Below, piece after piece: positions 4,343 through 59,425 of a DNA stretch of 64,000 nt (its first letter is position 1; each line of letters begins with the position of its first letter). The stretch lies in the NCBI GenBank assembly GCA_964531785.1, contig CAZHFF010000002.1, forward strand, positions 157,851 to 221,850, read 5' to 3'. A model generated the notes under the pieces. That model was not told the origin of the DNA, made no database searches, and was given only the letters and a program-made list of their open reading frames with translations. Both the position numbers and the translations under genes were made by a program. This DNA comes from an uncultured Candidatus Saccharibacteria bacterium (GTDB lineage: Bacteria > Patescibacteriota > Minisyncoccia > Phycocordibacterales > UBA12088).

Positions 4343-4418
4343 GCGCGCATAGCTCAGTTGGTAGAGCGCCGAGCTTATACCTCGGTGGTCCTAGGTTCGA
4401 GTCCTAGTGCGCGCACCA
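4343..4418 (+). tRNA. tRNA-Ile, anticodon UAU (CCA encoded)
   Basis: Hand-folded cloverleaf: acceptor GCGCGCA/TGCGCGC, D arm GCTC-AGTTGGTA-GAGC, anticodon arm CCGAG-CTTATAC-CTCGG (TAT at 34-36), variable TGGTC, T arm CTAGG-TTCGAGT-CCTAG, A73, CCA. Confidence 0.85.
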
Positions 4419-4450: not shown

Positions 4451-6598
4451 TTATTCAAAGTGCAGCCTAGCACTCTGTCGTGTTACTTGGTCGAAGAGTG
4501 CGGGGTAACTGGATAGCGTCGGGTCTCTGGTAACGATCGCCTGTGCTTCGGTGCGTGCCGCCTCGACGAGCTTAAGATTCTTAAGCGCTTCCATGCCAAG
4601 GTCCGAAAGGCCAGATTGGCTCCGTCCATACAGTTCACCGGGTCCACGTAGCTTCAGATCGAGCTCAGCAAGCTCGAATCCGTTCTTTGCTTTACTGAGG
4701 GCCATGAGGCGACTGTTCTTCTGACCTTCGCTCGTCAGCACGAAGCAGTATGCCTGCTGGCTGCTTCGTACGACCCGACCACGCAGCTGGTGCAGTTGCG
4801 CTAAGCCAAAGCGCTCAGCACCTTCGATGATGATTACGGTCGCGTTCGGTACGTTAACACCGACCTCGACGACCGAGGTTGCTACAAGCACATCGAACTC
4901 GTGCGCAAGGAAGCGACGCATGACCTCCTCTTTTTCCGCTGGTTTCATTTGGCCGTGCAGGACATCGATTCCGTAGCCCTTAAGCTCCTGCCGTTTTAGG
5001 CGCTCTGCCTCAGCAAGCACGGATTTCGTCTGAACAGCCATTTCTTTTGCAGGGTCTGGTTCATCGATGCGTGGACAGATGACGTAGGCCTGTCGTCCTA
5101 GGTCGAGCTCTCGACGCACCGACGTGTACATGGCGGCACGTCCTGTTCTGGGAACCACCTGCGTGATGATGGGTTTCCTCCCGTAGGGCATTTCACTTAG
5201 TACGGTGAGGTCAAGGTCACCGTAGAGGGTGAGCGCCAGTGTCCGGGGAATAGGTGTCGCGGTCATCGAGAGCAGGTGAGGGATCGCACCGTGCTTACCC
5301 ACGAGCGCTTTTCGCTGCGCGGTGCCGAAACGGTGTTGCTCATCGACAATGACGTACGCAAGATCTCTGAAGCGCACGCTTTTTTGTATGAGCGCATGGG
5401 TACCGACGAGCATCGTGATTTCACCAGTTGCCACCCACTTGAGGAGCTGCGCCTTTGACACCCTCGTGCTCCTCACGGGACCCGCCTTCGAGGGGTATTT
5501 TTTGCACCCACTTCCGGTCAGTAGACCGAGCTGTATCGGCATATGACCGAACAGTTCGGTGAACGATTCAAAGTGCTGCTGCGCAAGGATCTCGGTCGGT
5601 GCCATGTACGCCACTTGGTACCGTGCAGAAGGCCGTTCGGGCGGGCTTGCGGTTACTACTGCGTACGCGGTCGTTGCTGCGACCGCCGTCTTCCCGCTCC
5701 CCACATCACCTTCAAGGAGGCGGCTCATGGGTGATGTGGCGGCCATGTCCGCAAGGATATGGTCGATCGCGTGTCGTTGACCCGCTGTCAGCTCGAAAGG
5801 GAGGCGTTCCACGAACAGAAGAGCACGCAGGTGACCCTGTTCTATCGGGACCGATGGTGTCCTGTCGACGCTTGCGCGGGCACGCTGCTTGGCGACCTGG
5901 ATCACGAACACCTCCTCGAATGCGAACCGCTTTCGTGCAACGATCGCATCTTTTTCCTGTTTGGGTTGGTGGAGCATGACCAGTGCTCGGTCGAGAGCAG
6001 GCAAGTGATACTGCAGAAGGATATGTGGCGGTATCGGATCAGCGAGCGTCTGGTGGATCCCTGCGCGCACGAGCTTGGCGATCGCATGGCGGAACCAGCG
6101 CGACGTGATGCCGAGCGTTTCAGGGTATACTGCATACAGCGTTTCCTCTCCGTCTTCGCGGACAAACAGGGATCCGGGACTTCCTGTCGGGAGCTTTGCG
6201 GTGCGCTCGATCTCGGGATTCGCGACATAGAGTGGACCCGCCCCCTCGACCCTTCCTGTGACCTTGACCGACTGTCCGTCCTCGTACATCTTTGCAATGT
6301 ACGGTTGATTAAACCACATGAGCTTGATCTTACCGGTGCCGTCCTCAAGCCAAGCCTCCGCTATCGGCCGCCTCGTCTTCCAGGTCTTGCGTGTCGCTGG
6401 CTTCCGGAGGGTCCCGTAGAGTATGGCGTCAGCGCCACGCTGTACATCAACCACCGTTGTTTGGTTACCAGAGCTTTCGTAGCGCGTCGGGAAGTGGTAG
6501 ACGAGATCGCGGAGCGTCGCGATGCGCAGGCGTTCGAGCGCTCCGCGCTGGCTGTCGGTGAGCCGGAAGTGGTCAGATAGGGGGTCAGCCGGTTGCAT
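4451..6598 (-). CDS. recG: ATP-dependent DNA helicase RecG
   Basis: Wedge/OB N-terminus, helicase motifs GDVGSGKT, DEQHRFG, SATPIPRT-like (SMTATPIPRTL), QLHQLRGRVVR. Start set to ATG 6598 (MQPADPL), which lies 6 nt downstream of a minus-strand TATACT. The longer ORF start at 6676 is less likely. Confidence 0.9.
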   Translation of the reverse strand: MQPADPLSDHFRLTDSQRGALERLRIATLRDLVYHFPTRYESSGNQTTVVDVQRGADAILYGTLRKPATRKTWKTRRPIAEAWLEDGTGKIKLMWFNQPYIAKMYEDGQSVKVTGRVEGAGPLYVANPEIERTAKLPTGSPGSLFVREDGEETLYAVYPETLGITSRWFRHAIAKLVRAGIHQTLADPIPPHILLQYHLPALDRALVMLHQPKQEKDAIVARKRFAFEEVFVIQVAKQRARASVDRTPSVPIEQGHLRALLFVERLPFELTAGQRHAIDHILADMAATSPMSRLLEGDVGSGKTAVAATTAYAVVTASPPERPSARYQVAYMAPTEILAQQHFESFTELFGHMPIQLGLLTGSGCKKYPSKAGPVRSTRVSKAQLLKWVATGEITMLVGTHALIQKSVRFRDLAYVIVDEQHRFGTAQRKALVGKHGAIPHLLSMTATPIPRTLALTLYGDLDLTVLSEMPYGRKPIITQVVPRTGRAAMYTSVRRELDLGRQAYVICPRIDEPDPAKEMAVQTKSVLAEAERLKRQELKGYGIDVLHGQMKPAEKEEVMRRFLAHEFDVLVATSVVEVGVNVPNATVIIIEGAERFGLAQLHQLRGRVVRSSQQAYCFVLTSEGQKNSRLMALSKAKNGFELAELDLKLRGPGELYGRSQSGLSDLGMEALKNLKLVEAARTEAQAIVTRDPTLSSYPALFDQVTRQSARLHFE

Positions 6599-6692
6599 GA
6601 CGAGAGTATAGCACGACCGCCCCGTGCCATTTGACCGTGCAGATGAACTATAGTATAATGAAACTAGTTCGTGCAAAGGAAGGAGGAGCTCT

Positions 6693-6872
6693 ATGGCTCG
6701 ATATCAATGGGAAGCGCGCTGGCACGCGTTCAAGTACAATATGGGCGAAAGCAGAAGAGGGTGGCAGGAGCTGCACCGGTGGGTGATGAACGATGCACAC
6801 TGGTTGGTGCGCGTCGTCGCGGTCTCGTGGCCATTCGGTCTCGTGTTCCTCATGCTCGTCTTTTCGATGTGA
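6693..6872 (+). CDS. small (59 aa) Trp-rich protein with C-terminal transmembrane segment; below the ORF-track size cutoff
   Basis: ATG 6693 is preceded by AAGGAAGGAGGAG (strong SD) and TATAAT at 6652-6657. Translation MARYQWEARWHAFKYNMGESRRGWQELHRWVMNDAHWLVRVVAVSWPFGLVFLMLVFSM. Its stop is 4 nt before the next ATG. Confidence 0.45.
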   Translation: MARYQWEARWHAFKYNMGESRRGWQELHRWVMNDAHWLVRVVAVSWPFGLVFLMLVFSM

Positions 6873-11822: not shown

Positions 11823-13898
11823 CTACACGTGCTGTAGGTTCGCGCGAACACCAAGGAGTACCTGCTCGATATCAGTAACACTTGCCGGCTTGGTGAGATG
11901 GTGATGGAATCCAGCTTGCAGCGCACGCTCTTTGTCGGAGCTCTGCCCATAGCCGGAAACCGCGATGATCTTCGCGTTCACCTTTTGGTCATTGAGCGCT
12001 CGGGCCACGGCATAGCCGTCCATATCGGGCAGGCCAATGTCAAGCAGTACGACGTGCGGTCGGTAGGTGCGGGCTTGCTCTATCGCCTCCGTGCCGGTAT
12101 GGACCATGCGCGTTGCATATCCCAAGTGTTCGAGCAGCTTCGCCATGCTCACTGCAGCTGCCTCGTTATCATCGACCACAAGGATCCGGCAGTCCCGCTC
12201 CGGTGCCGCGGGAACGGCAGGCATTACCGGGATCTCGGGAAGTGGAGCCTGTACCGTGACTACTTTCGGCAGGAACACGGTGAACGTGCTGCCGAGCCCG
12301 AGTCCTTCGCTCGTTGCTTCGACAGTGCCGCCGTGCATGCCAACGAGCCGTTTGGTGAGCCAGAGTCCGATGCCAAGACCAGTGCCAGCACGTGAGTCCG
12401 CTCCGCCCTGGTGGAACGGTCGAAAGATCGCCTGGAGCTTATCGGCCGGTATACCCTTGCCGTTGTCTTGGACCACGAGGGTCACATCGCCGTTCTCGAG
12501 CGATGCCGCGAGTCGTATGGTGCCGGGTGCCTGGGTGTATTTTACTGCATTAAAGAGCAGGTTGACGAGCACTTGTTCAAGCCGGACCGCATCCACCTCG
12601 AGCCACACATCGGAACCGGGTTGTTCGATGATGAGCCGGTGTCCGGCTGCCTCCAAACTCGGCAGCACCGAGTCCACGGCATGCTTAAGTATGGACTGGA
12701 GCTTGGATCGACCGGTCTTCAACTTGAACTTGTTCCGCGTGATCCGTACAACGTCGAGCAGGTCGTCCAATAGGCGGCGCATCGTTCGCGTTTGCTGTTC
12801 AGCTTGGGTGAGGAGCTCGGTGAGCTCGGGGTCGGTCGTTCGGAGTTTGACCAGTTCGAGCGTGGTGACGAGTGGTGCGAGCGGGTTCCGAAGCTCATGG
12901 GCCAAGATGGCGATGAACGCGTTCTTTGAGTCATTGTCTCGGGCAAGTTGTGCGAGCGATTGTTCAAGCTCAACAGTACGCTTATTGAGCGCCTCAGCGA
13001 CCGTTTTACGCTCTTCGACCAGTGCTGCCATAAGATAGAAGATCGGCGCGATAAGGATCATGAAGAGCTCGGTGGCGAGCAGCTGCGCGCTCAAGCGATC
13101 GGTGTCGAGGTGTTGAAATACTATGCCTACGATACCAAGTACGAACACGGTTACGATCGCATAGACCGTAGCGCGCGCACCTATCCGTAGTCCGATCCAG
13201 AAAAGGACACCGAAAAAGAGATACAGTACCGCGAATACGCTCGACTGTGGTATGGCGGTCCAGAACAAGAGATAGGTCACCAGGAGGAGTGCCGTGCTGA
13301 CGAGCAGGAGTTCAGTCAGCTCGTGCTTGGCGTGGGGTCGGACACCACTTTTCACGAGGCTCGTGATGAGCGGTGTGAGTATCAGCACACTGACGATACC
13401 GCCAGCGCTGAGGCTGATCCAGAGTGCAAGCGGCGTCTCCATGAGTACGCCTGTTGACATTCGGGTGAGGACGGACACGGTCGGCGTGATGAGGGGTGTC
13501 GTGATCGCTACGAAAATGAGCAGCATTGCATCGCGCGTGCTCGCCATTGTTCCTACGAAATTGAAACGCTCTAGTATATAACCACCCAACAGTGCTTGTG
13601 TCGTATAGGCGATACTCACCATGAGATATACGATCGGCGGTAGTCCCGCGCCGCTCATAAAGGTCAACACAAGGAATGCAAGCAGTAGGACCGGCCAGAC
13701 ACCGTAGCCAAGCAGGAACGCTGCCGCGAGTGCGATGCCGGTCGGTGGCCAGATGAACGCGGGGTTCACGTCCAGGCTGAAGTACAGAAAATACCCCAGC
13801 TTACCGCTCACTAGCAGTGCGAGGAAAACCAGGATATAGACGCTGTAGCGCTCGCTCGAGGCGGTCATAGGGAACTGGCGGAAGAGCGATATGAGCAT
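11823..13898 (-). CDS. hybrid sensor histidine kinase: polytopic MASE1-like membrane domain, HisKA, HATPase_c, C-terminal receiver
   Basis: FIWPPTGIALAAAFLLGYG..., H-box FIAILAHELRNPLAPL, DNGKGIP and GTGLGIGLWL, receiver RILVVDDNEAAA...VLLDIGLPDMDGY. Its stop abuts the convergent HK stop (11822/11823). Confidence 0.85.
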   Translation of the reverse strand: MLISLFRQFPMTASSERYSVYILVFLALLVSGKLGYFLYFSLDVNPAFIWPPTGIALAAAFLLGYGVWPVLLLAFLVLTFMSGAGLPPIVYLMVSIAYTTQALLGGYILERFNFVGTMASTRDAMLLIFVAITTPLITPTVSVLTRMSTGVLMETPLALWISLSAGGIVSVLILTPLITSLVKSGVRPHAKHELTELLLVSTALLLVTYLLFWTAIPQSSVFAVLYLFFGVLFWIGLRIGARATVYAIVTVFVLGIVGIVFQHLDTDRLSAQLLATELFMILIAPIFYLMAALVEERKTVAEALNKRTVELEQSLAQLARDNDSKNAFIAILAHELRNPLAPLVTTLELVKLRTTDPELTELLTQAEQQTRTMRRLLDDLLDVVRITRNKFKLKTGRSKLQSILKHAVDSVLPSLEAAGHRLIIEQPGSDVWLEVDAVRLEQVLVNLLFNAVKYTQAPGTIRLAASLENGDVTLVVQDNGKGIPADKLQAIFRPFHQGGADSRAGTGLGIGLWLTKRLVGMHGGTVEATSEGLGLGSTFTVFLPKVVTVQAPLPEIPVMPAVPAAPERDCRILVVDDNEAAAVSMAKLLEHLGYATRMVHTGTEAIEQARTYRPHVVLLDIGLPDMDGYAVARALNDQKVNAKIIAVSGYGQSSDKERALQAGFHHHLTKPASVTDIEQVLLGVRANLQHV

Positions 13899-13984
13899 AG
13901 CGCTGGTGTCGTATCGTGCCCAACAGGTGCCCGTGTTGGCTAACGGATCCGATCATCATAAGCACAGTGAAACCGTGTGCAATC

Positions 13985-14018
13985 CAGTATATCCGAAAAG
14001 TATGAAGACCTCATGAAG
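13985..14018 (-). promoter_or_regulatory. tandem CTTCATG/CTTCATA boxes (11-bp period) plus TATACT; promoter of the hybrid kinase gene
   Basis: Minus strand reads CTTCATGaggtCTTCATActtttcggaTATACT (plus coordinates 14018-14012, 14007-14001, 13990-13985). Same architecture as 9788 and 10052. Confidence 0.45.
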
Positions 14019-14220
14019 AACGACATACATACGCACGGAACGGCGTGGCCGAACGACAGCGGCGCCGTATGGAGCTGGGCCCTTGCCATCGAGCGGTTCG
14101 ACTGCACGGCAAAAAAAGCGTACACAGCTTCAGGTCGGAAGCCTCGATCGGACGTTGGATCCGATCCGAAGGCTCGGCCGGAGCTTTCTGCCCCTCTTTT
14201 TACTCACTCGCTCTGCTCGT

Positions 14221-14244
14221 TGCGGAGGGTGTGGGATTCGAAGC
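14221..14244 (-). repeat. partial duplicate (22/24 nt) of the tRNA-Ser 3' end (T-loop, T-stem 3' strand, acceptor 3' strand, 3 trailer nt)
   Basis: Plus-strand tgcggagggtGtgggattcgaaGc versus tgcggagggtAtgggattcgaaCc at 14379-14402. There is no complementary 5' T-stem, so it is not a tRNA. Confidence 0.85.
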
Positions 14245-14380
14245 TTACAGCTTCAGTACCCTTTGCTGCTCTTTTGGTTCGCTTCGCTCCCAAAACAGCG
14301 TGCAAAGGCTTCGAATCCGTGTCACGCGTTTCTGCGAAACGCTACACATACCCTCTACAGCTCTCATGATGTTCGATCTG

Positions 14381-14467
14381 CGGAGGGTATGGGATTCGAA
14401 CCCATGAGGGGTTTTACCCCCTACCTCGTTAGCAGTGAGGCGCTTTCGACCACTCAGCCAACCCTCC
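14381..14467 (-). tRNA. tRNA-Ser, anticodon GCU (class II, long variable arm; CCA not encoded)
   Basis: Minus strand GGAGGGT-TG-GCT-GAGTGGTCGAA-AGC-G-CCTCA-CTGCTAA-CGAGG-TAGGGGGTAAAACCCCTCAT-GGG-TTCGAAT-CCC... ACCCTCC-G. Acceptor 7 bp; variable stem AGGGG/CCCCT. Confidence 0.9.
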
Positions 14468-14563
14468 GGTACGCCCTTCGCTTGGTCCGTATGGCTACGG
14501 ATGGCCAGCAACATGCGTGTGGCTATCGTACCTTACCCAGCGTTCAGTTTCAATGTGGGGCGT

Positions 14564-15244
14564 TTAGGAGGTGGCGTGCGCGGCGCTTACAAGAAGTACG
14601 TCACGTGCACCGGCAAGCATGAGCGCTTCTCGGGCTGCGTGGAGTGTTGCTCCGGTCGTCACGACGTCATCGATGAGGAGTATGTGTTTTCCCTCCGCTT
14701 TATGACGCTCCGCTACAACGAACGCGCCCCGCACGTTCGCGCTGCGTTTGAGGCGGGAAGTTTGGTGTGCCTGGGGTGCGGTCCGACGGACCCGTGAGAG
14801 TATGTCAGGAGCCAAGGTGAGTCCCGTGTCAGCAAGGTATCGGATCATCGCTACCGCGATACGTTCCGCCTGATTGAAGCCACGCTCCTGTTCGCGGCTC
14901 CGGTGGAGTGGCATGGGGACCACGAGGGTCTCGTGGAAGGCTCCAAACATCCGTCGTTCTGCCAGTTCCTCAGCAAGGTGGGGTGCCAGGACTGCGCCGA
15001 GTAGCAGAGCAGCCCGTTCATGGCCATAATATTTGGCCGCATGAACCACGCTGCGAACCAGATCGTGCTCGAAGGGCAGCGGGGCGATGACCGGCAGCGT
15101 TCGCTCGACGATCGGGGTGACACAGGTCCTTGCCAGTACGTCGACGCTCAAGCTATCGAAACGTCTGAGCCCTCGGTCGCGCGGGAACACTACGTCGAGG
15201 AGGACGCGCGAGAAGCTGTGTCTGGGTCGTGTGAGATTGTCCAT
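14564..15244 (-). CDS. comFC: ComF family protein (ComFC-type phosphoribosyltransferase)
   Basis: C-terminal PRTase motif KHILLIDDVVTTGATL; RGFNQAE motif. Divergent from pilM. Confidence 0.75.
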   Translation of the reverse strand: MDNLTRPRHSFSRVLLDVVFPRDRGLRRFDSLSVDVLARTCVTPIVERTLPVIAPLPFEHDLVRSVVHAAKYYGHERAALLLGAVLAPHLAEELAERRMFGAFHETLVVPMPLHRSREQERGFNQAERIAVAMIRYLADTGLTLAPDILSRVRRTAPQAHQTSRLKRSANVRGAFVVAERHKAEGKHILLIDDVVTTGATLHAAREALMLAGARDVLLVSAAHATS

Positions 15245-15318
15245 AGGTCTGTCGTTTCTTTAGTTGCACACTAGCGGTATACTATAGCGAGCGGAAAAAT
15301 GCAACAGTAATCACCTCT

Positions 15319-16467
15319 ATGTCAATATTCGATCAGGCACGGCAGGCGCTCGAACAAGGTATGTTCAAGAAAGGCTCGCAGAGCGTCCTTGGTGTGGATG
15401 TCGGCTCTTCTGCGATCAAGATCGTCCAGGCACGGAAAGAGAAGGGTATTGCCATACTCGAAACCTATGGGGAGATAGCGCTTGGACCTCATGCGGACCT
15501 TGAAGTGGGTCGCGCGACGAACCTGCCAAGCGAGAAGCTCGCCGTTGCGCTCAAGGACCTGCTCAAAGAGGCGAATGTGACCACGACGAGCTGCGGTGCA
15601 TCGGTCCCGTTTGCCGCGAGCCTTGTCAAGCTCATTGAGATGCCGCCGGTTTCGGCTCAGAAGCTTGCCGCCATGATACCGCTCGAGGCGCGCAAGTATA
15701 TTCCGGTACCCATTGGTGAGGTGCAGCTAGACTGGTTCATCGTGCCCGAAGCGGAACAGAAGTTCTTTGAGGGTGCCCAGAGCGTTGCGGATGCCGAGGA
15801 GCGCGAGCTCAAGAACAAGCTCGTTCTCCTGGTGGCAATTCACAACGAAACATTGCGACGATATACCGACACGCTCAAGCTTGCTGGGCTCTCGCCATCG
15901 TTCTATGAGATCGAGATCTTCTCGAGCATCCGCTCGACCATCGAACGTGGTCTTGCACCGGTCGCCATCATCGATATAGGTGCAGCAACGAGCAAGGTCT
16001 ATGTTGTGGAACTGGGCATCATCCTTGCGTCGCATGTCATTCCCAAGGGCTCCCAGGACGTGACCCTTTCGCTTGCTAACTCAAGCCATGTGAGCATCAC
16101 CAAAGCAGAGGAGGTGAAACGGCAGTCCGGGATCCTGGGCGGAGACGCAGGGAGTCAAATGGCCACGGTATCACATGCGGCAGCGCTCACCATGGAACAC
16201 ATTTTCATTGAGGCACGAAGGGTGCTCCTCGGTTTTCAGAAGAAGCACAATAAGGTCATCACCAAGGTGATCCTCACCGGAGGTGGGTCGACGATGAAGG
16301 GTTTACGCGAGTTTGCGCAGAAGCAGCTCGAGCTTGAAACAGAACTGGCGAATCCGTTCGCACACCTGCAGGCACCTGCCTTTCTTGAGGAGGTGCTCAA
16401 GGAAGCCGGTCCCGATTTCTCGGTCGCGGTCGGCCTCGCCTTGCGTAAGCTGCAGGAGAGCGCGTAG
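15319..16467 (+). CDS. pilM: type IV pilus assembly protein PilM (actin-like ATPase fold)
   Basis: VLGVDVGSSAIKIVQ...IIDIGAATSKVYVV...ILTGGGSTMKGL; first gene of the pilus operon. Confidence 0.8.
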   Translation: MSIFDQARQALEQGMFKKGSQSVLGVDVGSSAIKIVQARKEKGIAILETYGEIALGPHADLEVGRATNLPSEKLAVALKDLLKEANVTTTSCGASVPFAASLVKLIEMPPVSAQKLAAMIPLEARKYIPVPIGEVQLDWFIVPEAEQKFFEGAQSVADAEERELKNKLVLLVAIHNETLRRYTDTLKLAGLSPSFYEIEIFSSIRSTIERGLAPVAIIDIGAATSKVYVVELGIILASHVIPKGSQDVTLSLANSSHVSITKAEEVKRQSGILGGDAGSQMATVSHAAALTMEHIFIEARRVLLGFQKKHNKVITKVILTGGGSTMKGLREFAQKQLELETELANPFAHLQAPAFLEEVLKEAGPDFSVAVGLALRKLQESA

Positions 16468-16537
16468 TGGATAAGTCGTTCGTTGACACCCGGTGGTAGC
16501 CGTATACTAGCAACATCAGGTTACCTGCGCTTATTCT

Positions 16538-17293
16538 GTGGAACCGAAGTTCAATACATCATTCATACCGAAGCAGTCCATGCAGACGTCCACTGCAGGA
16601 CCTGCGGTGTCGAACTATGTTTCGCGACGGACTACGAAAGGGCCCGGGTTCTATATAACCTTTCTCGTGTTCTTCATATCGGTGCTCGTATCGATCGGGA
16701 TGTTCGTGTATACGCGGATCATCGAGGCCAGTATCGAGGATAAGCTCGCCCAGATAGAGCGTGTCCAGGCCGCGTTCGATCCTGCCTCGATGAAGGAACT
16801 CATCCGGGTGGACACCCGTATGAAGTATGCACACCTCTTGATAGACGGCCACGTGACGCCGTCTGAGTATCTACGGCTGCTCGAGCAAATGACGCTCCGT
16901 AATGTCCGTTACGAGTCGCTTTCGTTCAATACAGGGAGCGCTGCCACGAAACCGTCTGCCCAGGCCCTGCCTGAGGCACAGACACCGCCGTCCGTGGTAC
17001 TTACCGGTCAGGCGGCGGATTTCAAAAAGATCGCTCTTCAGGCGGACCAGTTCGCACTGAACGCGGACGTGCGCAACCCGGTGGTCTCTGGGCTCAACAT
17101 AAACTCAGAGAAGCTCGCAGTGTTCAGTGTGACCATGCATATCGATCAGAGGCTCATCTCCTACACTGATGCGCTTCGGAGTGGACGCAGAGCGGTGTCA
17201 CCGACGGCTGTGCCGGTACCAGTTACAACACCAAACCCAACCGAAGCACCAAACGATACTGCCACTACGTCGGAACCGACCGACCAGCCGTAA
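16538..17293 (+). CDS. PilN-like bitopic membrane protein (pilus alignment complex), Pro/Thr-rich tail
   Basis: Single TM (FYITFLVFFISVLVSIGMFVY) followed by a coiled segment. Position between pilM and the pilO-like gene. Assignment rests on context. Confidence 0.5.
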   Translation: MEPKFNTSFIPKQSMQTSTAGPAVSNYVSRRTTKGPGFYITFLVFFISVLVSIGMFVYTRIIEASIEDKLAQIERVQAAFDPASMKELIRVDTRMKYAHLLIDGHVTPSEYLRLLEQMTLRNVRYESLSFNTGSAATKPSAQALPEAQTPPSVVLTGQAADFKKIALQADQFALNADVRNPVVSGLNINSEKLAVFSVTMHIDQRLISYTDALRSGRRAVSPTAVPVPVTTPNPTEAPNDTATTSEPTDQP

Positions 17294-17299
17294 CCCACT

Positions 17300-17854
17300 A
17301 TGAACAAAGTCATCGCACCCTTCCTCTTTATAGCGATCGCCGTCGGTCTGTTCTTTACATATCTCGATCCTGCATACAAAGCGGTGCAGGCGTTACAGCT
17401 GCAGGAGTCGCGTTTGGATAAGGCACTGACCGATTCAAAGAGCTTGCAGGAAAAGCGCGCCTCGCTCCTTAAGCGGTACGCGGATTTTTCGGATAGCGAT
17501 GTTGCGCGCTTGAACAAATTGCTTCCCGACAACGTCGACAATGTTCGACTGGTGATCGATATCGATAGTATCGGGGCTTCGTATAACCTTACCGTGCGCG
17601 ATTACTCCTTCAGTACCGCGGATCAGGGCGGCGAGCAAAACCCGGCGGACGTTCTGGGTATAGCTCGTCTGAGTTTCGGGGTACAGGGAAGCTACCGAGA
17701 TTTCAAAGCATTCCTATTCGACCTCGAATCAAGCTTGCGTCTGGTGGACATCACTTCGTACTCGGTAACCGCAACCCCGTCGGGCCCAACAGCTGAAGGT
17801 GCTCGACCCGGCAACACGTACGTAGTTGCTCTACAGACCTACTGGCTCAAGTAA
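17300..17854 (+). CDS. PilO-like bitopic membrane protein
   Basis: N-terminal TM (IAPFLFIAIAVGLFFTYL), coiled coil, C-terminal alpha/beta region. Assignment rests on synteny. Confidence 0.5.
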   Translation: MNKVIAPFLFIAIAVGLFFTYLDPAYKAVQALQLQESRLDKALTDSKSLQEKRASLLKRYADFSDSDVARLNKLLPDNVDNVRLVIDIDSIGASYNLTVRDYSFSTADQGGEQNPADVLGIARLSFGVQGSYRDFKAFLFDLESSLRLVDITSYSVTATPSGPTAEGARPGNTYVVALQTYWLK

Positions 17855-17865
17855 CGCTCACGACC

Positions 17866-18180
17866 ATGGCACAGCTCGCAAAGTTCAAACCCGTATTCAT
17901 GGCACTCGCCGGTATACTGATACTGTGGGCTATATATACGTTCGGCGGCAACCTGGACCTCAGCGGCGGAGCAGGCCAACATGCCGCGGACATAGAGGCC
18001 CGTACGCAGCAGATCGAGAGCACGATCCTGGCCGAGCTCGATAGGCTTCAGAAAGTGGAGCTCGACGGTCGTTTGTTCGAATCCGACGGTTTCAGGAGCC
18101 TCAAGGACTGGAGCGTACCGCTCGGTGAGCCGGATGTGGGCCGTCCCGACCCGTTCGCACGGTTCGGTACGCAACAGTGA
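17866..18180 (+). CDS. small membrane-anchored protein of the pilus operon (function unknown)
   Basis: N-terminal TM FKPVFMALAGILILWAIYTF; tightly packed between the pilO-like gene and pilB. Confidence 0.5.
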   Translation: MAQLAKFKPVFMALAGILILWAIYTFGGNLDLSGGAGQHAADIEARTQQIESTILAELDRLQKVELDGRLFESDGFRSLKDWSVPLGEPDVGRPDPFARFGTQQ

Positions 18181-24279: not shown

Positions 24280-25209
24280 ATGCTCGAACTCACCCATCTT
24301 CTTATTGCGTACCTGTTCCTGCTCGGCACCACCATCGGGAGTTTCCTGAACGTGGTCGTGCTGCGCTACGAGCAATCTACGCCGCTTTCCGGCCGTTCCC
24401 GGTGCCCCTCATGCAATAAGGTCCTCGCCTGGTATGAGCTCATTCCCCTCGTCTCATGGCTCATTCAACGGGGAAGGTGTCGCGGCTGCAACGCACCCAT
24501 TTCCGCCCAGTATCCGCTGGTCGAACTTGCGACCGGTTTCGTGTTCGTCGGGGTTGTCCTAGTCCACGGCGGTGTCTTTGGTGTCCCGGCACCATTCGTA
24601 TTTCTGCCATCGCTGTTGCCGATCGTGCCTGGTTCCGCTTCGCTCTTGTACCTGGCGCTTGGGCTCACGCTCTGGTCGCTCCTCATCGTGGTCACCGTGT
24701 ACGACCTGCGCACCAAGCTCGTGCCTGACCGGTTTTCCTACACCTTTGCCCTGCTTGCGCTCGCGTATAGCTTGCTGCCTGTGGTGGTTGCGTGGTTCAC
24801 GGCCGCACCGATCGTACCTGTGATCGTGCCCGTGCTCCTCATGCATATCGCGGCCGGACCGCTCCTCTTCCTGCCGTTCTTCCTGCTCTGGTACATATCG
24901 GACGGGCGGTGGCTCGGACTGGGGGACGGGAAGCTGGTACTGGGGATCGGCTGGCTCCTGGGTATGTTGGGCGGCTTCTCTGCCATACTGTTCGCGTTTT
25001 GGATCGGGGCGCTCGTTGCTACGGGGCTGCTTGCCTACCAACACGTTCTGGCACGCTTCCAGGCTCGTGCTCGTGGTGAAGGGGGCGCATCGGCGGGGCC
25101 TACCGGGGAGCAGCTGACGCTCAAGAGCGAGATCCCGTTTGCGCCGTTCCTTGTACTCGGTACCGCGATCGTCTACTTCGGCGGGGTAACGATCTTGGCA
25201 CTTTTTTAG
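24280..25209 (+). CDS. pilD: prepilin peptidase PilD (A24 family)
   Basis: SFLNVVVLRYEQ...RSRCPSCNKVLAWYELIPLVSWL..RGRCRGCNAPIS..YPLVEL; polytopic membrane protein with conserved GDGK (GLGDGKLVL). Confidence 0.85.
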   Translation: MLELTHLLIAYLFLLGTTIGSFLNVVVLRYEQSTPLSGRSRCPSCNKVLAWYELIPLVSWLIQRGRCRGCNAPISAQYPLVELATGFVFVGVVLVHGGVFGVPAPFVFLPSLLPIVPGSASLLYLALGLTLWSLLIVVTVYDLRTKLVPDRFSYTFALLALAYSLLPVVVAWFTAAPIVPVIVPVLLMHIAAGPLLFLPFFLLWYISDGRWLGLGDGKLVLGIGWLLGMLGGFSAILFAFWIGALVATGLLAYQHVLARFQARARGEGGASAGPTGEQLTLKSEIPFAPFLVLGTAIVYFGGVTILALF

Positions 25210-34398: not shown

Positions 34399-34418
34399 CG
34401 TGTTGCGGGGCCTGGATT
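34399..34418 (-). repeat. perfect 20-nt duplicate of the tRNA-CAU 3' end (T-loop end, T-stem 3' strand, acceptor 3' strand, 4 trailer nt)
   Basis: cgtgttgcggggcctggatt is identical at 34399-34418 and 34619-34638 (offset 220 bp). Confidence 0.9.
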
Positions 34419-34544
34419 CGGGGTCAAGTTGCATCGGTATTCCTTTACGCTTCGCTCAAGTAATACCGTGCACTTCCTCCCCGACCTCGCTTGCTCCTCT
34501 CCGCAGAGTGCGAATCGGAACAAAGCTGCGGTTTGCAAATCCGG

Positions 34545-34569
34545 ACGCGAGCAAAGCAGTTTACTCGCT
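34545..34569 (-). repeat. conserved 25-nt hairpin, copy A (AGCGAGTAAACTGCTTTGCTCGCGT on the tRNA strand)
   Basis: 24/25 identical to 37764-37788 (plus strand), in the same orientation relative to the adjacent tRNA. Stem GCGAG(T/C)AAA/TTTGCTCGC, loop CTGC. Confidence 0.85.
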
Positions 34570-34622
34570 GCCCGCGCCCACGTAACAGGAAAACGGCCTC
34601 ATCAGCCGTTTTCCTTGCCGTG

Positions 34623-34693
34623 TTGCGGGGCCTGGATTTGCACCAGGGCCTCAAGGTTATGAGCCTTGCGAGCTACTACTGCTCTACCCCGCA
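34623..34693 (-). tRNA. tRNA with anticodon CAU (Met, or Ile2 if lysidine-modified); atypical features
   Basis: Minus strand TGCGGGG-TA-GAGC-AGTAGTA-GCTC-G-CAAGG-CTCATAA-CCTTG-AGGC-CCTGG-TGCAAAT-CCAGG-CCCCGCA-A. U1:A72 pair, G at position 55, no GG in the D-loop, CCA not encoded. Confidence 0.65.
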
Positions 34694-36824: not shown

Positions 36825-36930
36825 AAGCAGTGCGACGCCGCTTCGGGAACGACACTTCGCGGTACCCGTTTGGAGCGGTCGTGTGCGGGTCGTTGAAGCA
36901 TAGTACCGTTGAAAGCAACTCCTGGTCTCC

Positions 36931-37563
36931 ATGAACGATAGTAGCCCCATAGCACGTGTCATGCACCACCCCTGGTTCGGCGTGGCGAGCAACGTGGCGC
37001 TCGCGCTCGTTTTCACCCATTTTGCGGTACGCCATGTCGCTGCGTACCAGATCGACCCGAATCCGCTCTACCTCATGTACGTCACGATGGAGGCGCTCGT
37101 GGTCGCTTTCGTACTGTCGAGGAAGCAGCCTATCGAACGGAGCGCCCGACCCGCGACGATACTGGCCGCCCTTGCCGGCACCTTCCTGCCGCTCGTGTAT
37201 GCACCAAACGGACAGGTCCTTACGTATACTGTTGGCGTCTTGCTCGGTTTCGTGGGTTCGGCATTCGCGGTGCTCTCGTACCTGTCGCTCAACACCAGTT
37301 TTGGCATCACCCCCGCGCTACGCTCGGTGAAGGAGCGCGGCATGTATGCGTTCGTGCGTCACCCTATGTACCTCTCGTACCTACCGCTCCAGGTCGGGTA
37401 CCTGCTGACCAATTTCTCCGTCTACAATGCCTCCGTGTTCGCGCTGATCGTCGTTGCCCAGCTCACCCGCATACGGTACGAAGAAGCGCTCCTGCTCCGG
37501 GACCCCGCCTACGTGCGATATGCGGCTCGGGTGCGGTACCGTTTGATCCCGTACGTCTACTGA
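36931..37563 (+). CDS. isoprenylcysteine carboxyl / phospholipid methyltransferase family membrane protein
   Basis: GMYAFVRHPMYLSYL...RIRYEEALL motif; 5 TM. Confidence 0.7.
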   Translation: MNDSSPIARVMHHPWFGVASNVALALVFTHFAVRHVAAYQIDPNPLYLMYVTMEALVVAFVLSRKQPIERSARPATILAALAGTFLPLVYAPNGQVLTYTVGVLLGFVGSAFAVLSYLSLNTSFGITPALRSVKERGMYAFVRHPMYLSYLPLQVGYLLTNFSVYNASVFALIVVAQLTRIRYEEALLLRDPAYVRYAARVRYRLIPYVY

Positions 37564-37647: not shown

Positions 37648-37721
37648 GCGGGTGTAGCTCAGCTGGTTAGAGCGTCCGCCTGTCACGCGGAAGGTCGAGG
37701 GTTCAAGTCCCTTCACCCGCG
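37648..37721 (+). tRNA. tRNA-Asp, anticodon GUC
   Basis: GCGGGTG-TA-GCTC-AGCTGGTTA-GAGC-G-TCCGC-CTGTCAC-GCGGA-AGGTC-GAGGG-TTCAAGT-CCCTT-CACCCGC-G. Confidence 0.9.
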
Positions 37722-37758
37722 CACACGCAAACAGCCCCTCCGGGGCTTTTTGCGTGTG
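37722..37758 (+). terminator. long perfect hairpin immediately after tRNA-Asp (terminator-like)
   Basis: cacacgcaaa-c-agcccc-tcc-ggggct-t-tttgcgtgtg. Confidence 0.6.
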
Positions 37759-37763
37759 CGGTG

Positions 37764-37788
37764 AGCGAGCAAACTGCTTTGCTCGCGT
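37764..37788 (+). repeat. conserved 25-nt hairpin, copy B (AGCGAGCAAACTGCTTTGCTCGCGT)
   Basis: 24/25 identical to the reverse complement of 34545-34569. Followed directly by AAGGGACTTGAA (37789-37800), the exact reverse complement of the tRNA-Asp T-loop/T-stem TTCAAGTCCCTT (37702-37713). Confidence 0.85.
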
Positions 37789-37916
37789 AAGGGACTTGAA
37801 AAGCAGAGCCATGTCGCAAAGCGACAGGCGAGCTCGGGTAGGAGCCACCCGCTAGAATTGGAGCACAGCGACGTGCATCCATAGGTCGTGTACTTATGCT
37901 CGGGTATACTGCAGGT

Positions 37917-59246: not shown

Positions 59247-59425
59247 CAGAGAAACGTTGCTCCGGACGTAGCGTACCGCGTGTATAGATCGCCGACGAGC
59301 AGAGAGGCATGCGCTGCGTACGACCCGGGCTACTCCTTCAAATGAACGGGCGTTCATGGTATCCTCCGGACCAGAGGCACCGTTCGGTGCCTAGTTGTTT
59401 GACATGAACAGGGAGCTACGTTCTG

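Follow-up and report, generated by a model that had tools for sequence, protein, structure and literature searches.

We analysed a 64,000-nucleotide stretch of DNA from an uncultured Candidatus Saccharibacteria bacterium, here called the window. On its minus strand, ARAGORN and Rfam agree on a tRNA-Ser(GCU) gene at 14380/14381–14467 (Rfam tRNA model, 57.1 bits); the feature as listed here, 14380–14467, carries no encoded CCA and ends ...ACCCUCC-G73-C-A. Upstream of it on the same strand, a scan found a sigma-70-like promoter match, TTGAAA-17-TACGAT (14525–14553, 9/12 consensus matches), which is a consensus match only. Directly downstream, also on the minus strand, the gene is adjoined by a unit at 14221–14379 that ends in an echo of the tRNA's own 3' end. 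The proximal repeat copy, X1 (14379–14402), is the tRNA's own T-loop, T-stem 3' strand, acceptor 3' strand, G73 and CA; the echo, X2 (14221–14244), is a direct copy of X1, and its first five nucleotides also form the 3' strand of a hairpin, P4. Comparison of the two intervals confirmed the 24-nt copy with 22/24 identities that a preliminary description of this DNA had reported. The repeat pair 14221–14242/14379–14400 agrees at 21/22 positions, its members lying 158 nt apart, the echo shares 19 of the last 20 nt of tRNA-Ser, and by our own estimate about 4e-9 24-mers with ≤2 mismatches would be expected by chance in 400 nt.

The echo was thought not to be a second tRNA, and indeed neither ARAGORN nor the Rfam tRNA model, even at E ≤ 10, calls one over 14221–14379. 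The spacer had also been called highly structured, in agreement with the fold energy of a 181-nt stretch at this locus (−65.3 kcal/mol, z = −4.3). An assembly artefact, named earlier as a point to check, was not found: the Logan assembly of run SRR9016294, made independently, matches 13563–18068 at 100% identity, so the Ser unit is no quirk of one assembler. Between the repeat copies lie 134 nt only, with no genes. The neighbouring ORFs encode a hybrid histidine kinase, ComF, PilM, a two-component system and a T2SS ATPase, and the earlier remark that no integrase is nearby holds for the ORFs checked between positions of about 10 and 20 kb.

Parts of the unit behind tRNA-Ser(GCU)

Read along the minus strand, the unit begins with a short trailer, l1 (14357–14378), devoid of any terminator-like hairpin. 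It is followed by the anti-acceptor segment AGAGGGUAUG (14347–14356), an inverted copy of the acceptor 3' strand and the T-stem end, which occupies the same position in other members of the family described below. The complementarity of AGAGGGT (14350–14356) to the acceptor strand had been noted before; it is present but is really part of a 17-nt arm (14347–14363), 82% complementary to 14375–14391, in which 14–15 of 17 positions pair with the genuine tRNA 3' end and trailer. Next comes the junction hairpin A-GCGUUUC-GCA-GAAACGC-GU (14324–14343), which contains the 7-bp hairpin already described and is the positional homologue of a 22-mer hairpin, GAGCAAACUGCUUUGCUCGCGU, found in related units. 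Complementarity and the family pattern place the anti-T segment GGAUUCGAAGC, an inverted copy of the T-loop and T-stem 3' strand, at 14308–14318. Thus, the Ser locus holds both inverted segments in family order, the acceptor part before the T part, with the A...GU-flanked hairpin between them.

The interior follows, all of it on the minus strand. In the MFE fold, helix P2 (14260–14308; CCUUUGC at 14302–14308 with GCAAAGG at 14260–14266) encloses the apical hairpin P3 (14267–14301), whose loop is GAGCGAAGCGAA (14278–14289). The CCTTTGC/GCAAAGG helix and the TTTTGG/CCAAAA stem with this loop had both been described, and both are there. A conserved, unpaired linker, (G)GUACU (14255–14259), backed by the invariant columns C-T-G and T-G-T-A of our alignment A2, joins P2 to P4 (GAAGC-UGUAA-GCUUC, 14240–14254), a hairpin of a kind recovered by an anchor-only search. 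Element by element, the Ser unit reads as the class-2 consensus: P2 CTTTGC/GCAAAG, GGTACT, P4 GAAGC-TGTAA-GCTTC, then GAATCC... (class 2 being defined by P2, a variable P3, (G)GUAC(C)U, a 5-bp P4 with the loop UGUAA/G, and GA plus the echo). Two helices close the unit in the MFE fold, AGAGGGU-ACCCUCC and GGAUUC(GAAGC)-(GCUUC)GAAUCC. The preliminary description had proposed an 11-nt helix here; the complementarity of 14308–14318 to 14234–14244 is perfect, but in the family structure five of these nucleotides (GCUUC) form P4 instead. It had also missed that the 7-bp hairpin, AGAGGGT and the GGATTCGAAGC segments jointly make up an inverted copy of the tRNA 3' end.

Below the echo lies a degenerate second unit (14105–14220, minus strand), recognised by its repeats: the ACGAGCAGAGCGAGUGAG trailer motif, GAGGGG and a repeat of CUGAAGCUGU. 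It terminates with the hairpin GAAGC-UGUGUAC-GCUUU and a U7 (T7) run (14108–14131). The locus thus carries one intact unit and one degenerate copy.

Related units in the window and across Patescibacteria

Comparable units, overlooked in the preliminary description, stand behind two more tRNAs of the window. The unit behind tRNA-Met(CAU) (tRNA 34622–34693, unit 34399–34621, minus strand) consists of a terminator-like hairpin, the 22-mer hairpin (34545–34566), the anti-T segment GGAUUUGCAAA, a class-1 interior with the loop GAGCGAAGCG (34448–34457), an echo (34399–34421) and a terminator. The unit behind tRNA-Asp (tRNA 37648–37722, unit 37723–37865, plus strand) has a terminator, an anti-acceptor, the same 22-nt hairpin (37767–37788), the anti-T segment AAGGGACUUGAA and a class-1 interior; its 3' end is truncated and the echo is missing, as judged in part from the alignment to the related locus L071. 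We rejected the motif CACCCGC 3' of tRNA-Asp as a weak echo: it lies within the interior that class 1 conserves, and this unit is truncated. A 10-mer from the P3 loop of the Ser unit recurs in the tRNA-Met unit. A third exact GAGCGAAGCG in the window (24636–24645) falls inside a long ORF and was treated as chance. Half of the window's tRNAs have no unit.

How widespread are these modules? Exact copies of the 22-mer are present in at least 118 genome stretches, with few exceptions Patescibacteria MAGs, and are common to distant classes of the phylum. Among 124 matches, 84 follow a tRNA on the same strand, of whatever isotype, by ≤130 nt; units also stand 3' of tmRNA, and the usual distance of the 22-mer from the tRNA or tmRNA is 7–130 nt. 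Placement is strongly one-sided in the related loci: an echo (≥12 nt) was found downstream of 72/186 tRNAs vs upstream of 4/186, and an inverted copy downstream of 51 vs upstream of none. Units measure 110–260 nt and share one order: an optional terminator, the split inverted copy, a conserved structured interior and the direct echo. The inverted copy corresponds to the tRNA's last ~20–25 nt and is interrupted at the acceptor/T-stem junction by a covarying hairpin.

Covariation was seen in this junction hairpin. Across 17 variants, all 9 pairs were doubly changed and 99.3% of cells were paired, a result matched by 0/500 shuffles. In the anchor-only search, all five P4 pairs were formed in 22 of 46 matches, compared with a chance expectation of 0.7%; 31 such hairpins with 20 distinct stems were recovered. 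P2 was kept with differing sequences among class-2 units, its seven pairs being complete in 24/31 vs 20% in shuffles, although the shuffle background of this test is high (20–46%) because the stems are T-rich. When class-2 units were aligned with MAFFT, differences in linker length shifted P2 out of register, and for this reason we used anchor-based tests and built no covariance model. The conserved architecture and covarying helices that a check on homologous loci was meant to find are therefore present.

The closing helix behaved differently. Mismatches between inverted copy and echo showed no wobble bias (37 G-T vs 40 A-C), and where the two direct copies differ, the inverted copy complements the tRNA's own copy at 103 sites and the echo at 10; its T part pairs at 93% with the former vs 83% with the latter. 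Since the inverted copy fits the tRNA copy better, the closing helix is not visibly maintained by compensatory change, and the two repeat copies resemble tRNA ends that drift independently. A single long near-perfect palindrome is made up, in many units, of the tRNA end, A-tract, stem, T-tract and anti-acceptor. A terminator-like hairpin lies between tRNA and unit in 30/52 cases, and 17 of these 30 units have another after the echo.

These features could suggest a cis-acting element of the tRNA gene, in which the inverted copy either base-pairs, within the precursor, with the 3' half of the tRNA itself or lengthens the stem of the terminator, and so acts on termination, 3' processing or quality control while the echo serves as a decoy that frees the tRNA. 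The better match to the tRNA's own copy, the palindromes and the 14–15/17 pairing of 14347–14363 with 14375–14391 in the window all agree with this, and RtT, a repeat of E. coli, has been linked to processing of the tyrT transcript by a secondary source (10.1101/2024.07.17.603846). Against it, the unit is missing at most orthologous tRNA-Ser genes and at half of the window's tRNAs, and the covarying interior and the tandem arrays are left unexplained; moreover, the inverted copy is positioned after the U-tract and therefore cannot influence termination. We consider a cis-acting role rather improbable.

Could the repeat be a functionless scar instead, the attL/attR pair that remained after near-total deletion of an integrated island? 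The Ser unit does show the flanking direct repeat of a tRNA 3' end, and the DNA between the copies is free of genes. However, there is no integrase between or beside the copies, and the content is not an unconserved remnant: the order of the parts, the conserved loops and the compensatory stem changes are found again in >100 genomes as well as behind three of the window's tRNAs, a recurrence that random deletions would not produce, and the inverted copy has no explanation in an att scar. We give this reading very little credence.

Presence of the unit is patchy. Only 18–23 of 90 orthologous tRNA-Ser(GCU) genes (~20–25%) carry one and the others are empty, so that the empty sites sought in related genomes are in fact the majority; in L250, the tRNA-Ser(GCU) 3' end is identical and the unit is absent. 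Where present, interior classes differ between lineages at this same tRNA. Conversely, near-identical interiors with matched ends stand behind different genes (L027 Lys, L050 Ser, L132 tmRNA). Tandem arrays are clear in the relatives L020, L040 and L208, truncated copies also occur, and in L039, L064, L083 and L085 modules bracket 1–3.5 kb of cargo genes, whose ORFs are UDG-like, DUF3298/PdaC or unknowns, with integrase absent. In the distal copy, CCA and flank are often still the native ones, while the copy within the tRNA extends only to N73/C74 and the unit's terminator comes next.

Catalogues of known RNAs and viruses contained no counterpart. Rfam searches of the window and 26 related loci (gathering threshold and E ≤ 10) returned tRNA, tmRNA and one group I intron only, leaving the units uncovered, and the 22-mer had 0 matches in the 2.9 million viral contigs of IMG/VR, which argues against a phage origin. 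A scan of viral contigs for TGCACG-N9-GAGCGAAGCGNA gave 5 matches, which is chance level; three were one Streptomyces-like hairpin, out of tRNA context. Nothing was found in a literature search on the 22-mer sequence, and a keyword search for a Patescibacteria tRNA-trailer element gave nothing relevant. We discarded a group I intron origin, the units being too small and matching no intron model; the tRNA introns described in Patescibacteria lie in the anticodon loop (PMC13011429) and are unrelated. A reverse transcriptase beside the L085 module was judged incidental, as tblastn over 1.55 Mb of loci found only that copy and one fragment. The Ser unit thus represents a large family, apparently uncatalogued so far, of structured modules that trail tRNA and tmRNA genes in Patescibacteria.

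Comparison with E. coli repeats and other systems

tRNA-linked repeats (TLRs) have been known in E. coli since 1978. In a TLR, the last 18–19 nt of the unit equal the 3' end of the upstream gene (PMC8144298), and each locus carries one to five tandem copies. The E. coli rtT repeats contain GGGGAAGGA, an inverted copy of the T-stem and acceptor of tRNA-Tyr, and the echo AATCCTTCCCCCACCACCA; the RF00391 consensus pairs exactly these two segments as its outer helix, and the annotated ncRNA rttR spans from +8 after tyrV to the CCA of the echo. The parallels between RtT (tyrT-tyrV, RF00391) and the Patescibacteria units are several: (i) both lie directly 3' of a tRNA on the same strand; (ii) both end in a copy of the tRNA 3' end, ~19 nt in RtT, beginning in the T-loop; (iii) an upstream inverted T-stem/acceptor copy pairs with the echo and closes the unit; and (iv) both measure ~130–180 nt and occur in tandem. 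In RtT, GAUGAGAA follows the inverted T-stem, as it does in one Patescibacteria subclass.

There are also differences. Specific to the Patescibacteria units are the junction hairpin, in many cases the exact 22-mer, and the class-1 and class-2 interiors; these units follow essentially all tRNA isotypes and tmRNA in a distant phylum, and their inverted copy usually includes the T-loop and the whole acceptor strand. RtT is an annotated processed RNA, whereas the Patescibacteria units are known here from DNA sequence. Neither the window nor the Patescibacteria loci matched RF00391, whether the gathering threshold or E ≤ 10 was applied, and nhmmer with E. coli rtT and rrB queries returned nothing from all loci (best E = 3.3). 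The Patescibacteria family is of the same build as E. coli RtT, with no detectable sequence or covariance-model similarity, and the parallel may therefore be convergence.

A second group of E. coli repeats, rrA/rrB/rrF, resembles the units in another respect: two terminators flank a module whose last part copies the 3' end of the stable RNA upstream (PMC8144298), and dual terminator-like hairpins likewise surround many Patescibacteria units. Unlike these, rrA/rrB/rrF are linked to 5S rRNA rather than tRNA, and they bind Hfq and CsrA through GGA motifs (PMC8144298). In them, the 5S end had no clear inverted counterpart, the best match being 6 nt; an apparent GGATTTGAAC in rrB was just a local hairpin. 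Release of an RNA that has a tRNA-like end is documented for RtT and proposed for rrA/rrB/rrF, where read-through transcription between the two terminators is followed by processing (PMC8144298). Apart from the proposed Hfq/CsrA role of the three rRNA-linked copies, E. coli TLRs have no established function (PMC8144298).

Processing signals of this kind are also seen elsewhere. In the t-elements of plant mitochondria and in MALAT1 mascRNA, an acceptor/T-arm-like fold steers tRNA-processing enzymes to a transcript that is not a tRNA, as proposed for the units below, and the 3'ETS-leuZ sponge is a functional RNA made from a tRNA trailer. Unlike the units, none of these is known to be a copy of the neighbouring tRNA's 3' end or to form a repeat family. 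3'ETS-leuZ is also mentioned in PMC8144298.

The att repeats of islands that integrate at tRNA or tmRNA genes (for example tycheposons, and remnants that have no integrase and can be mobilised in cis) share with the units a direct tRNA 3' repeat starting in the T-loop, a regenerated gene with the displaced fragment distal, tmRNA among the targets, variable presence among relatives, and arrays separated by partial tRNA copies. Unlike them, the Patescibacteria units are 110–260 bp long, have no integrase, hold conserved non-coding structured content and an inverted copy of the target, and have a 22-mer that is missing from viral contigs. Integron attC sites and the attP of CTX phage, like the units, place two inverted target-like copies ~100 nt of hairpins apart, conserve structure over sequence, and come in tandem arrays, sometimes with cassette-like cargo. 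The Patescibacteria units differ in targeting a tRNA end, and we know of no link between them and IntI or Xer.

Proposed trailer RNA, possible mobile element

What are these modules? We favour, at a probability of roughly one half, that the 158-nt Ser unit is a TLR-type trailer module, co-transcribed with the tRNA and excised via its tRNA-like end. The module would be transcribed from the tRNA-Ser promoter within the tRNA precursor, as we infer from the lack of a terminator between tRNA-Ser and the unit, the first terminator-like hairpin and U-run being those at 14108–14131. The inverted copy would then pair with the echo into a helix resembling an acceptor stem and T-stem, from which G73-C-A protrudes as a free tail; the place of the D and anticodon arms would be taken by the junction hairpin. 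The tRNA 3'-trimming enzymes could cut at both copies, releasing a small RNA of ~155–160 nt with a tRNA-like end. Because a terminator-like hairpin stands ahead of 30 of the 52 units, co-transcription in those cases would need read-through. At the DNA level, modules would be gained, lost, tandemly duplicated and truncated, probably because the repeated tRNA ends recombine. Of the two readings offered in the preliminary description, that of a tRNA-linked structured RNA with a tRNA-like acceptor end comes close to the comparative data, that is, the conserved architecture, covarying helices, conserved loops and RtT-like build.

Its other reading, a minimal or decayed integrative element, fares less well as a random scar, given the inverted copy and a content that is conserved and modular in >100 genomes, but its DNA-level flavour persists in the ~20–25% occupancy, the native CCA and flank on the distal copy, the arrays and the bracketed cargo. 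Alternatively, then, the units may be miniature non-autonomous integrative elements that insert at the 3' end of tRNA or tmRNA genes with a crossover in the T-loop, bring a replacement 3' end (X1) and a terminator, and displace the native end (X2). The inverted copy would allow the element, once single-stranded or excised, to fold into a target-like duplex, on the model of integron attC or CTX phage attP, or else would act as a guide, and mobilisation would occur in trans, or through homologous recombination once DNA had been taken up by natural transformation. The sparse occupancy, with L250 empty and interior classes that vary by lineage, speaks for such an element, as does the tRNA copy that ends at N73/C74 with the unit's own terminator next. 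Identity begins in mid T-loop and tmRNA is among the targets, both of which are classical integrase sublocations; partial tRNA copies have been described as att marks (10.1101/2020.12.28.424599). Arrays, truncated copies, bracketed cargo, the matched-end interiors behind Lys, Ser and tmRNA genes and the exact 22-mer across distant classes point the same way. Yet no integrase or transposase stands beside any inspected unit, the adjacent reverse transcriptase of L085 is a single case, the viral contigs lack the 22-mer, the 110–260 bp units have no coding capacity, and the E. coli analogues are stable, conserved and transcribed as RNA. On balance, we hold an integrative element to be possible but unlikely.

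A bolder version makes the units programmable: the hairpin-split inverted copy, as guide or folded target mimic, would direct a trans-acting recombinase, or host recombination after DNA uptake, to the T-loop-to-C74 segment of the matching tRNA or tmRNA. If true, this would account for the near-identical interiors with matched ends, the cargo brackets and the spread of the 22-mer across classes, and E. coli TLRs would be its domesticated or fossil relatives. We regard it as speculative and quite improbable.

For Patescibacteria, the finding means that a family structurally equivalent to TLRs, and unrelated to them in sequence, pervades reduced genomes, its 22-nt hairpin being unchanged in more than 100 species. 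Retention of non-coding modules in genomes so small argues for a function or an efficient selfish mechanism. For annotation, echoes can be mistaken for the att sites of genomic islands or for tRNA fragments. The hundreds of diverse copies offer comparative material that the E. coli repeats never gave, for defining the fold and for seeking a partner protein through phylogenetic profiling.

The tRNA-Ser(GCU) unit and its sisters

On the minus strand, tRNA-Ser(GCU) (14380/14381-14467, ARAGORN and Rfam) ends in ...GGGUUCGAAUCCCAUACCCUCC-G-CA, and 134 nt further on GCUUCGAAUCCCACACCCUCC-G-CA recurs. The preliminary description had put this copy, the echo, at 22 of 24 identical nucleotides, which direct comparison bore out; a repeat finder returned a direct repeat of 21/22 at a spacing of 158 nt, and the echo matches 19 of the last 20 nt of the tRNA. 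All the helices described earlier in the spacer were found in the sequence, and the stretch folds far below shuffles (-65.3 kcal/mol, z = -4.3). The Logan assembly of SRR9016294 is identical across 13563-18068, so the duplicate is not peculiar to a single assembler. A promoter-like site precedes the tRNA (14553-14525), and the first terminator-like element past it is a hairpin with U7 at 14108-14131.

Nor is the Ser unit alone in the window: related units lie behind tRNA-Met and tRNA-Asp. When all six tRNAs of the window were put to an echo test, tRNA-Met(CAU) (34622-34693) also proved to have one, an 18/20 match at a distance of 220 nt; with its own trailing unit this tRNA covers 34399-34693 on the minus strand. 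The Met and Ser spacers have in common a 10-mer in a hairpin tip, GAGCGAAGCG, with three exact copies in the 64 kb, the third within an ORF. The Met unit has a 25-nt hairpin, AGCGAG(Y)AAACUGCUUUGCUCGCGU, that recurs behind tRNA-Asp (37648-37722). The Asp unit (37723-37865, plus strand) is truncated at its 3' side, has no echo, leads into the upstream region of the next gene and can be aligned to the second of the units that follow tRNA-Asp in a Saccharibacteria MAG locus, L071. In the Ser unit, the hairpin at this junction is the shorter A-GCGUUUC-GCA-GAAACGC-GU. In all three units, the junction hairpin stands between two reverse complements of local tRNA segments, together the inverted copy: that of the acceptor 3' strand before it, and that of the T-loop and T-stem 3' strand after it (Ser GGAUUCGAAGC, Met GGAUUUGCAAA, Asp AAGGGACUUGAA). 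The three host tRNAs all lack an encoded CCA, reading N73-C-A.

tRNA-Met(CAU) is itself unusual, with a D-loop AGUAGUA without GG and a T-loop UGCAAAU, the latter also present in tRNA-Met of L074 and L076. tRNA-Ile(UAU) (4343-4418, plus strand), uncommon in bacteria but shared with a number of the related Patescibacteria loci (L065, L084, L127), encodes its CCA and is followed by no unit. Possible decayed remnants lie on the plus strand behind tRNA-Thr (59248-59400; the motif ACGAGCAGAG, also found after the Ser echo, and CGCGU then AGAUCGCC) and behind a second tRNA-Met (36825-36935; GCAACTCCTGGTCTCC versus TCAACTCCTCCCCTCGG), the likeness of both being too weak for a call.

A module family in Patescibacteria

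We scanned one genome per species for exact copies of GAGYAAACTGCTTTGCTCGCGT, the 22-mer form of the junction hairpin in the Met and Asp units, and obtained at least 118 stretches; those listed are nearly all from Patescibacteria MAGs (Saccharibacteria, Paceibacterota, Kaiser-, Nomura-, Magasanik-, Yanofsky- and Vogelbacteria, among others). Of 124 hits among the matches listed, 84 have the 22-mer 7-130 nt 3' of a same-strand tRNA, which can be of essentially any isotype, and other hits fall behind tmRNA or an earlier unit of a tandem array. The order is tRNA, optional A-tract/stem/T-tract terminator, anti-acceptor, A-hairpin-GU, anti-T, interior and echo, the last running from the mid T-loop through the acceptor strand and N73 to C74. 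Of the 186 tRNAs that could be evaluated in the loci from these listed matches, 72 are followed and 4 preceded by an echo of 12 nt or more, and 51 are followed and none preceded by an inverted copy. Seventeen units, the Ser unit included, lack the 22-mer and have a different hairpin, or none, in its place. Terminator-like hairpins precede 30 and follow 24 of 52 Patescibacteria units. No Rfam 15 family covers any unit, and the 22-mer was absent from IMG/VR and was not found in the searchable literature. A random att scar, one of two readings offered in the preliminary description, is contradicted by the existence of this family, and we consider it highly improbable; the other, a tRNA-linked structured RNA, gains from the architecture and from the covariation described below.

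Where modules follow tmRNA genes (ssrA; L053, L066, L104, also L084, L096, L132, L087), it is the tmRNA 3' end that they repeat, in both inverted and direct orientation. Among terminator-less units, the trailer from tRNA to anti-acceptor repeatedly contains the purine-rich motif (A)ACGARCGAAGUGAG. The 22-mer also occurs on contigs binned as Burkholderiales, Bdellovibrionales, Gammaproteobacteria and Paraneptunicella (L016, L047, L044, L086, L034); the first four loci have typical units where sequence suffices and are thus probably mis-binned Patescibacteria, and L034 has the 22-mer without unit features.

Covariation and drift

Homologous units show the helix covariation that had been proposed as a check. 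Across 17 junction-hairpin variants, which were picked by position and by eye and so call for some caution, double changes occur at 9/9 pairs, 99.3% of cells are paired and the score was reached by 0 of 500 shuffles. Interiors are of two main types. Class 1 reads CGAA-NGCCGGAGC-AUGU-hairpin-GCGAGGCGGGGUCGCG-hairpin-GUGACC-echo and includes the Met unit and the Asp unit, cut off before the echo. Class 2 reads CGAAR-P2-P3-P2'-(G)GUAC(C)U-P4(loop UGUAA/G)-GA-echo. Searching 3.1 Mb with the unpaired P4 anchors alone, complementarity not being demanded, gave 46 hits, with 5/5 pairs in 22 (0.7% expected per hit) and the inner 4/4 in 31 (20 distinct stems); P2 is paired at 7/7 positions in 24 of 31 units, versus 20% in shuffles. 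The Ser unit fits class 2 on the minus strand: P2 (CCUUUGC, 14302-14308; GCAAAGG, 14260-14266), apical hairpin P3 (14267-14301), linker GGUACU ((14260)-14255), P4 (GAAGC-UGUAA-GCUUC, 14240-14254) and the echo from 14239 downward (GAAUCC...). The 11-bp helix proposed earlier thus shares five nucleotides with P4. Hairpin tips of the type GAGC-GAA-GCGA recur in variable hairpins (window 14278-14289 and 34448-34457; L026, L027, L045, L046; variants GAGCGUAGCGA, GAGCGACGGCGA) and could form tandem G.A pairs, two G-C pairs and a triloop.

Compared with the tRNA copy, the echo differs at 11.3% of positions, and the inverted copy departs from the complement of that same tRNA copy at 10.5%. At sites where the tRNA copy and the echo disagree, the inverted copy sides with the tRNA copy in 103 cases and with the echo in 10, and its mismatches with the echo (37 G-T, 40 A-C) have no wobble bias. 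Thus, the two copies behave as if each were drifting independently from the tRNA end, with little sign that compensation maintains the pairing of inverted copy and echo. The better match to the tRNA itself would suit a cis role on the tRNA precursor, a reading that we regard as unlikely and that leaves the conserved interior unexplained.

Mobility or a trailer RNA?

What is the unit? A metagenome scan with a 32-nt piece of the tRNA-Ser(GCU) body gave 90 evaluable orthologous genes, with a unit at 18-23, class 1 and class 2 both being represented, and the remainder empty. These empty sites, sought since the preliminary description, include L250, whose tRNA 3' end is identical to that of the window. 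L006 (assembly CAZMPG01), a close relative (ComF identity 57%), has a near-identical tRNA-Ser whose CCA is encoded and which is followed by a plain terminator rather than a unit, and a contig of the same CAZMPG01 prefix, L071, has units behind tRNA-Asp. At filled sites, the tRNA copy ends at N73/C74, passing into the unit, and CA or CCA plus native flank commonly follows the echo. Tandem arrays (L020, L040, L208) and truncated units occur. In a few cases, modules or partial modules flank 1-3.5 kb of protein genes (L039 1400-4740, L064 6170-7390, L083 2290-3880, L085 2790-5940): UDG-family, HhH-glycosylase-like (weak match), DUF3298/PdaC, radical SAM and unknowns, with no integrase among them. 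This arrangement resembles a cassette or island. A miniature integrative element, our main alternative though a doubtful one, explains several things better than a trailer RNA does: units are present at some orthologues and absent from others, a native CCA follows the echo, some copies bracket cargo, and different tRNAs can share identical interiors. No enzyme and no excised form were identified for it.

Other genes were seen nearby. A reverse transcriptase gene (328 aa, YADD motif, L085 1725-2711) ends about 80 nt ahead of a module, an adjacency that is probably incidental, given that 1.55 Mb of loci contained only one further fragment of such a gene. Near several tRNAs in L076 (6682-6941), Rfam detects a group I intron (69.6 bits), in agreement with introns reported in Patescibacteria (PMC13011429). 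L002, a ComF relative at 62% identity, has a free-standing LAGLIDADG-type ORF (5777-6778) between comF and tRNA-Ser(GCU).

The same build is found in E. coli tyrT-tyrV. Each 178-bp rtT repeat contains GCGGGGAAGGAUGAGAA, an inverted copy of the tRNA-Tyr T-stem 3' strand and acceptor-strand start, and has AAUCCUUCCCCCACCACCA at its end; it is precisely these two segments that pair in the RF00391 consensus, and the annotated ncRNA rttR runs from +8 past tyrV to the CCA of the echo. GAGAA follows GCGGGGAAGGAUGAGAA, as in one Patescibacteria subclass (...GGAUGAGAAC...). RF00391 had no match to Patescibacteria units at E <= 10, and nhmmer with the E. coli repeats found nothing in them. [quoted passage not shown] The three 5S-linked TLRs lie between two terminators; their RNAs arise by read-through, undergo processing and bind Hfq and CsrA in vitro, and in the proposal of the authors the repeated end is what signals processing (PMC8144298).

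The comparisons demonstrate how the unit is built, that it belongs to the family, that its internal helices covary and that units are present at some orthologous genes and absent at others. From the promoter-like site at 14553-14525 and the lack of a terminator before 14108-14131, we infer that the Ser unit would be transcribed together with tRNA-Ser. Its inverted copy and echo would close an acceptor/T-stem-like helix, and the tRNA 3'-end machinery may release it, any function being likewise conjectural. We give this reading, a tRNA-Ser co-transcript with such a fold freed by that machinery, a probability of about 0.5. We class the finding as a TLR-like trailer module: the kind is known but unexplained, and this variant of it is very widespread.
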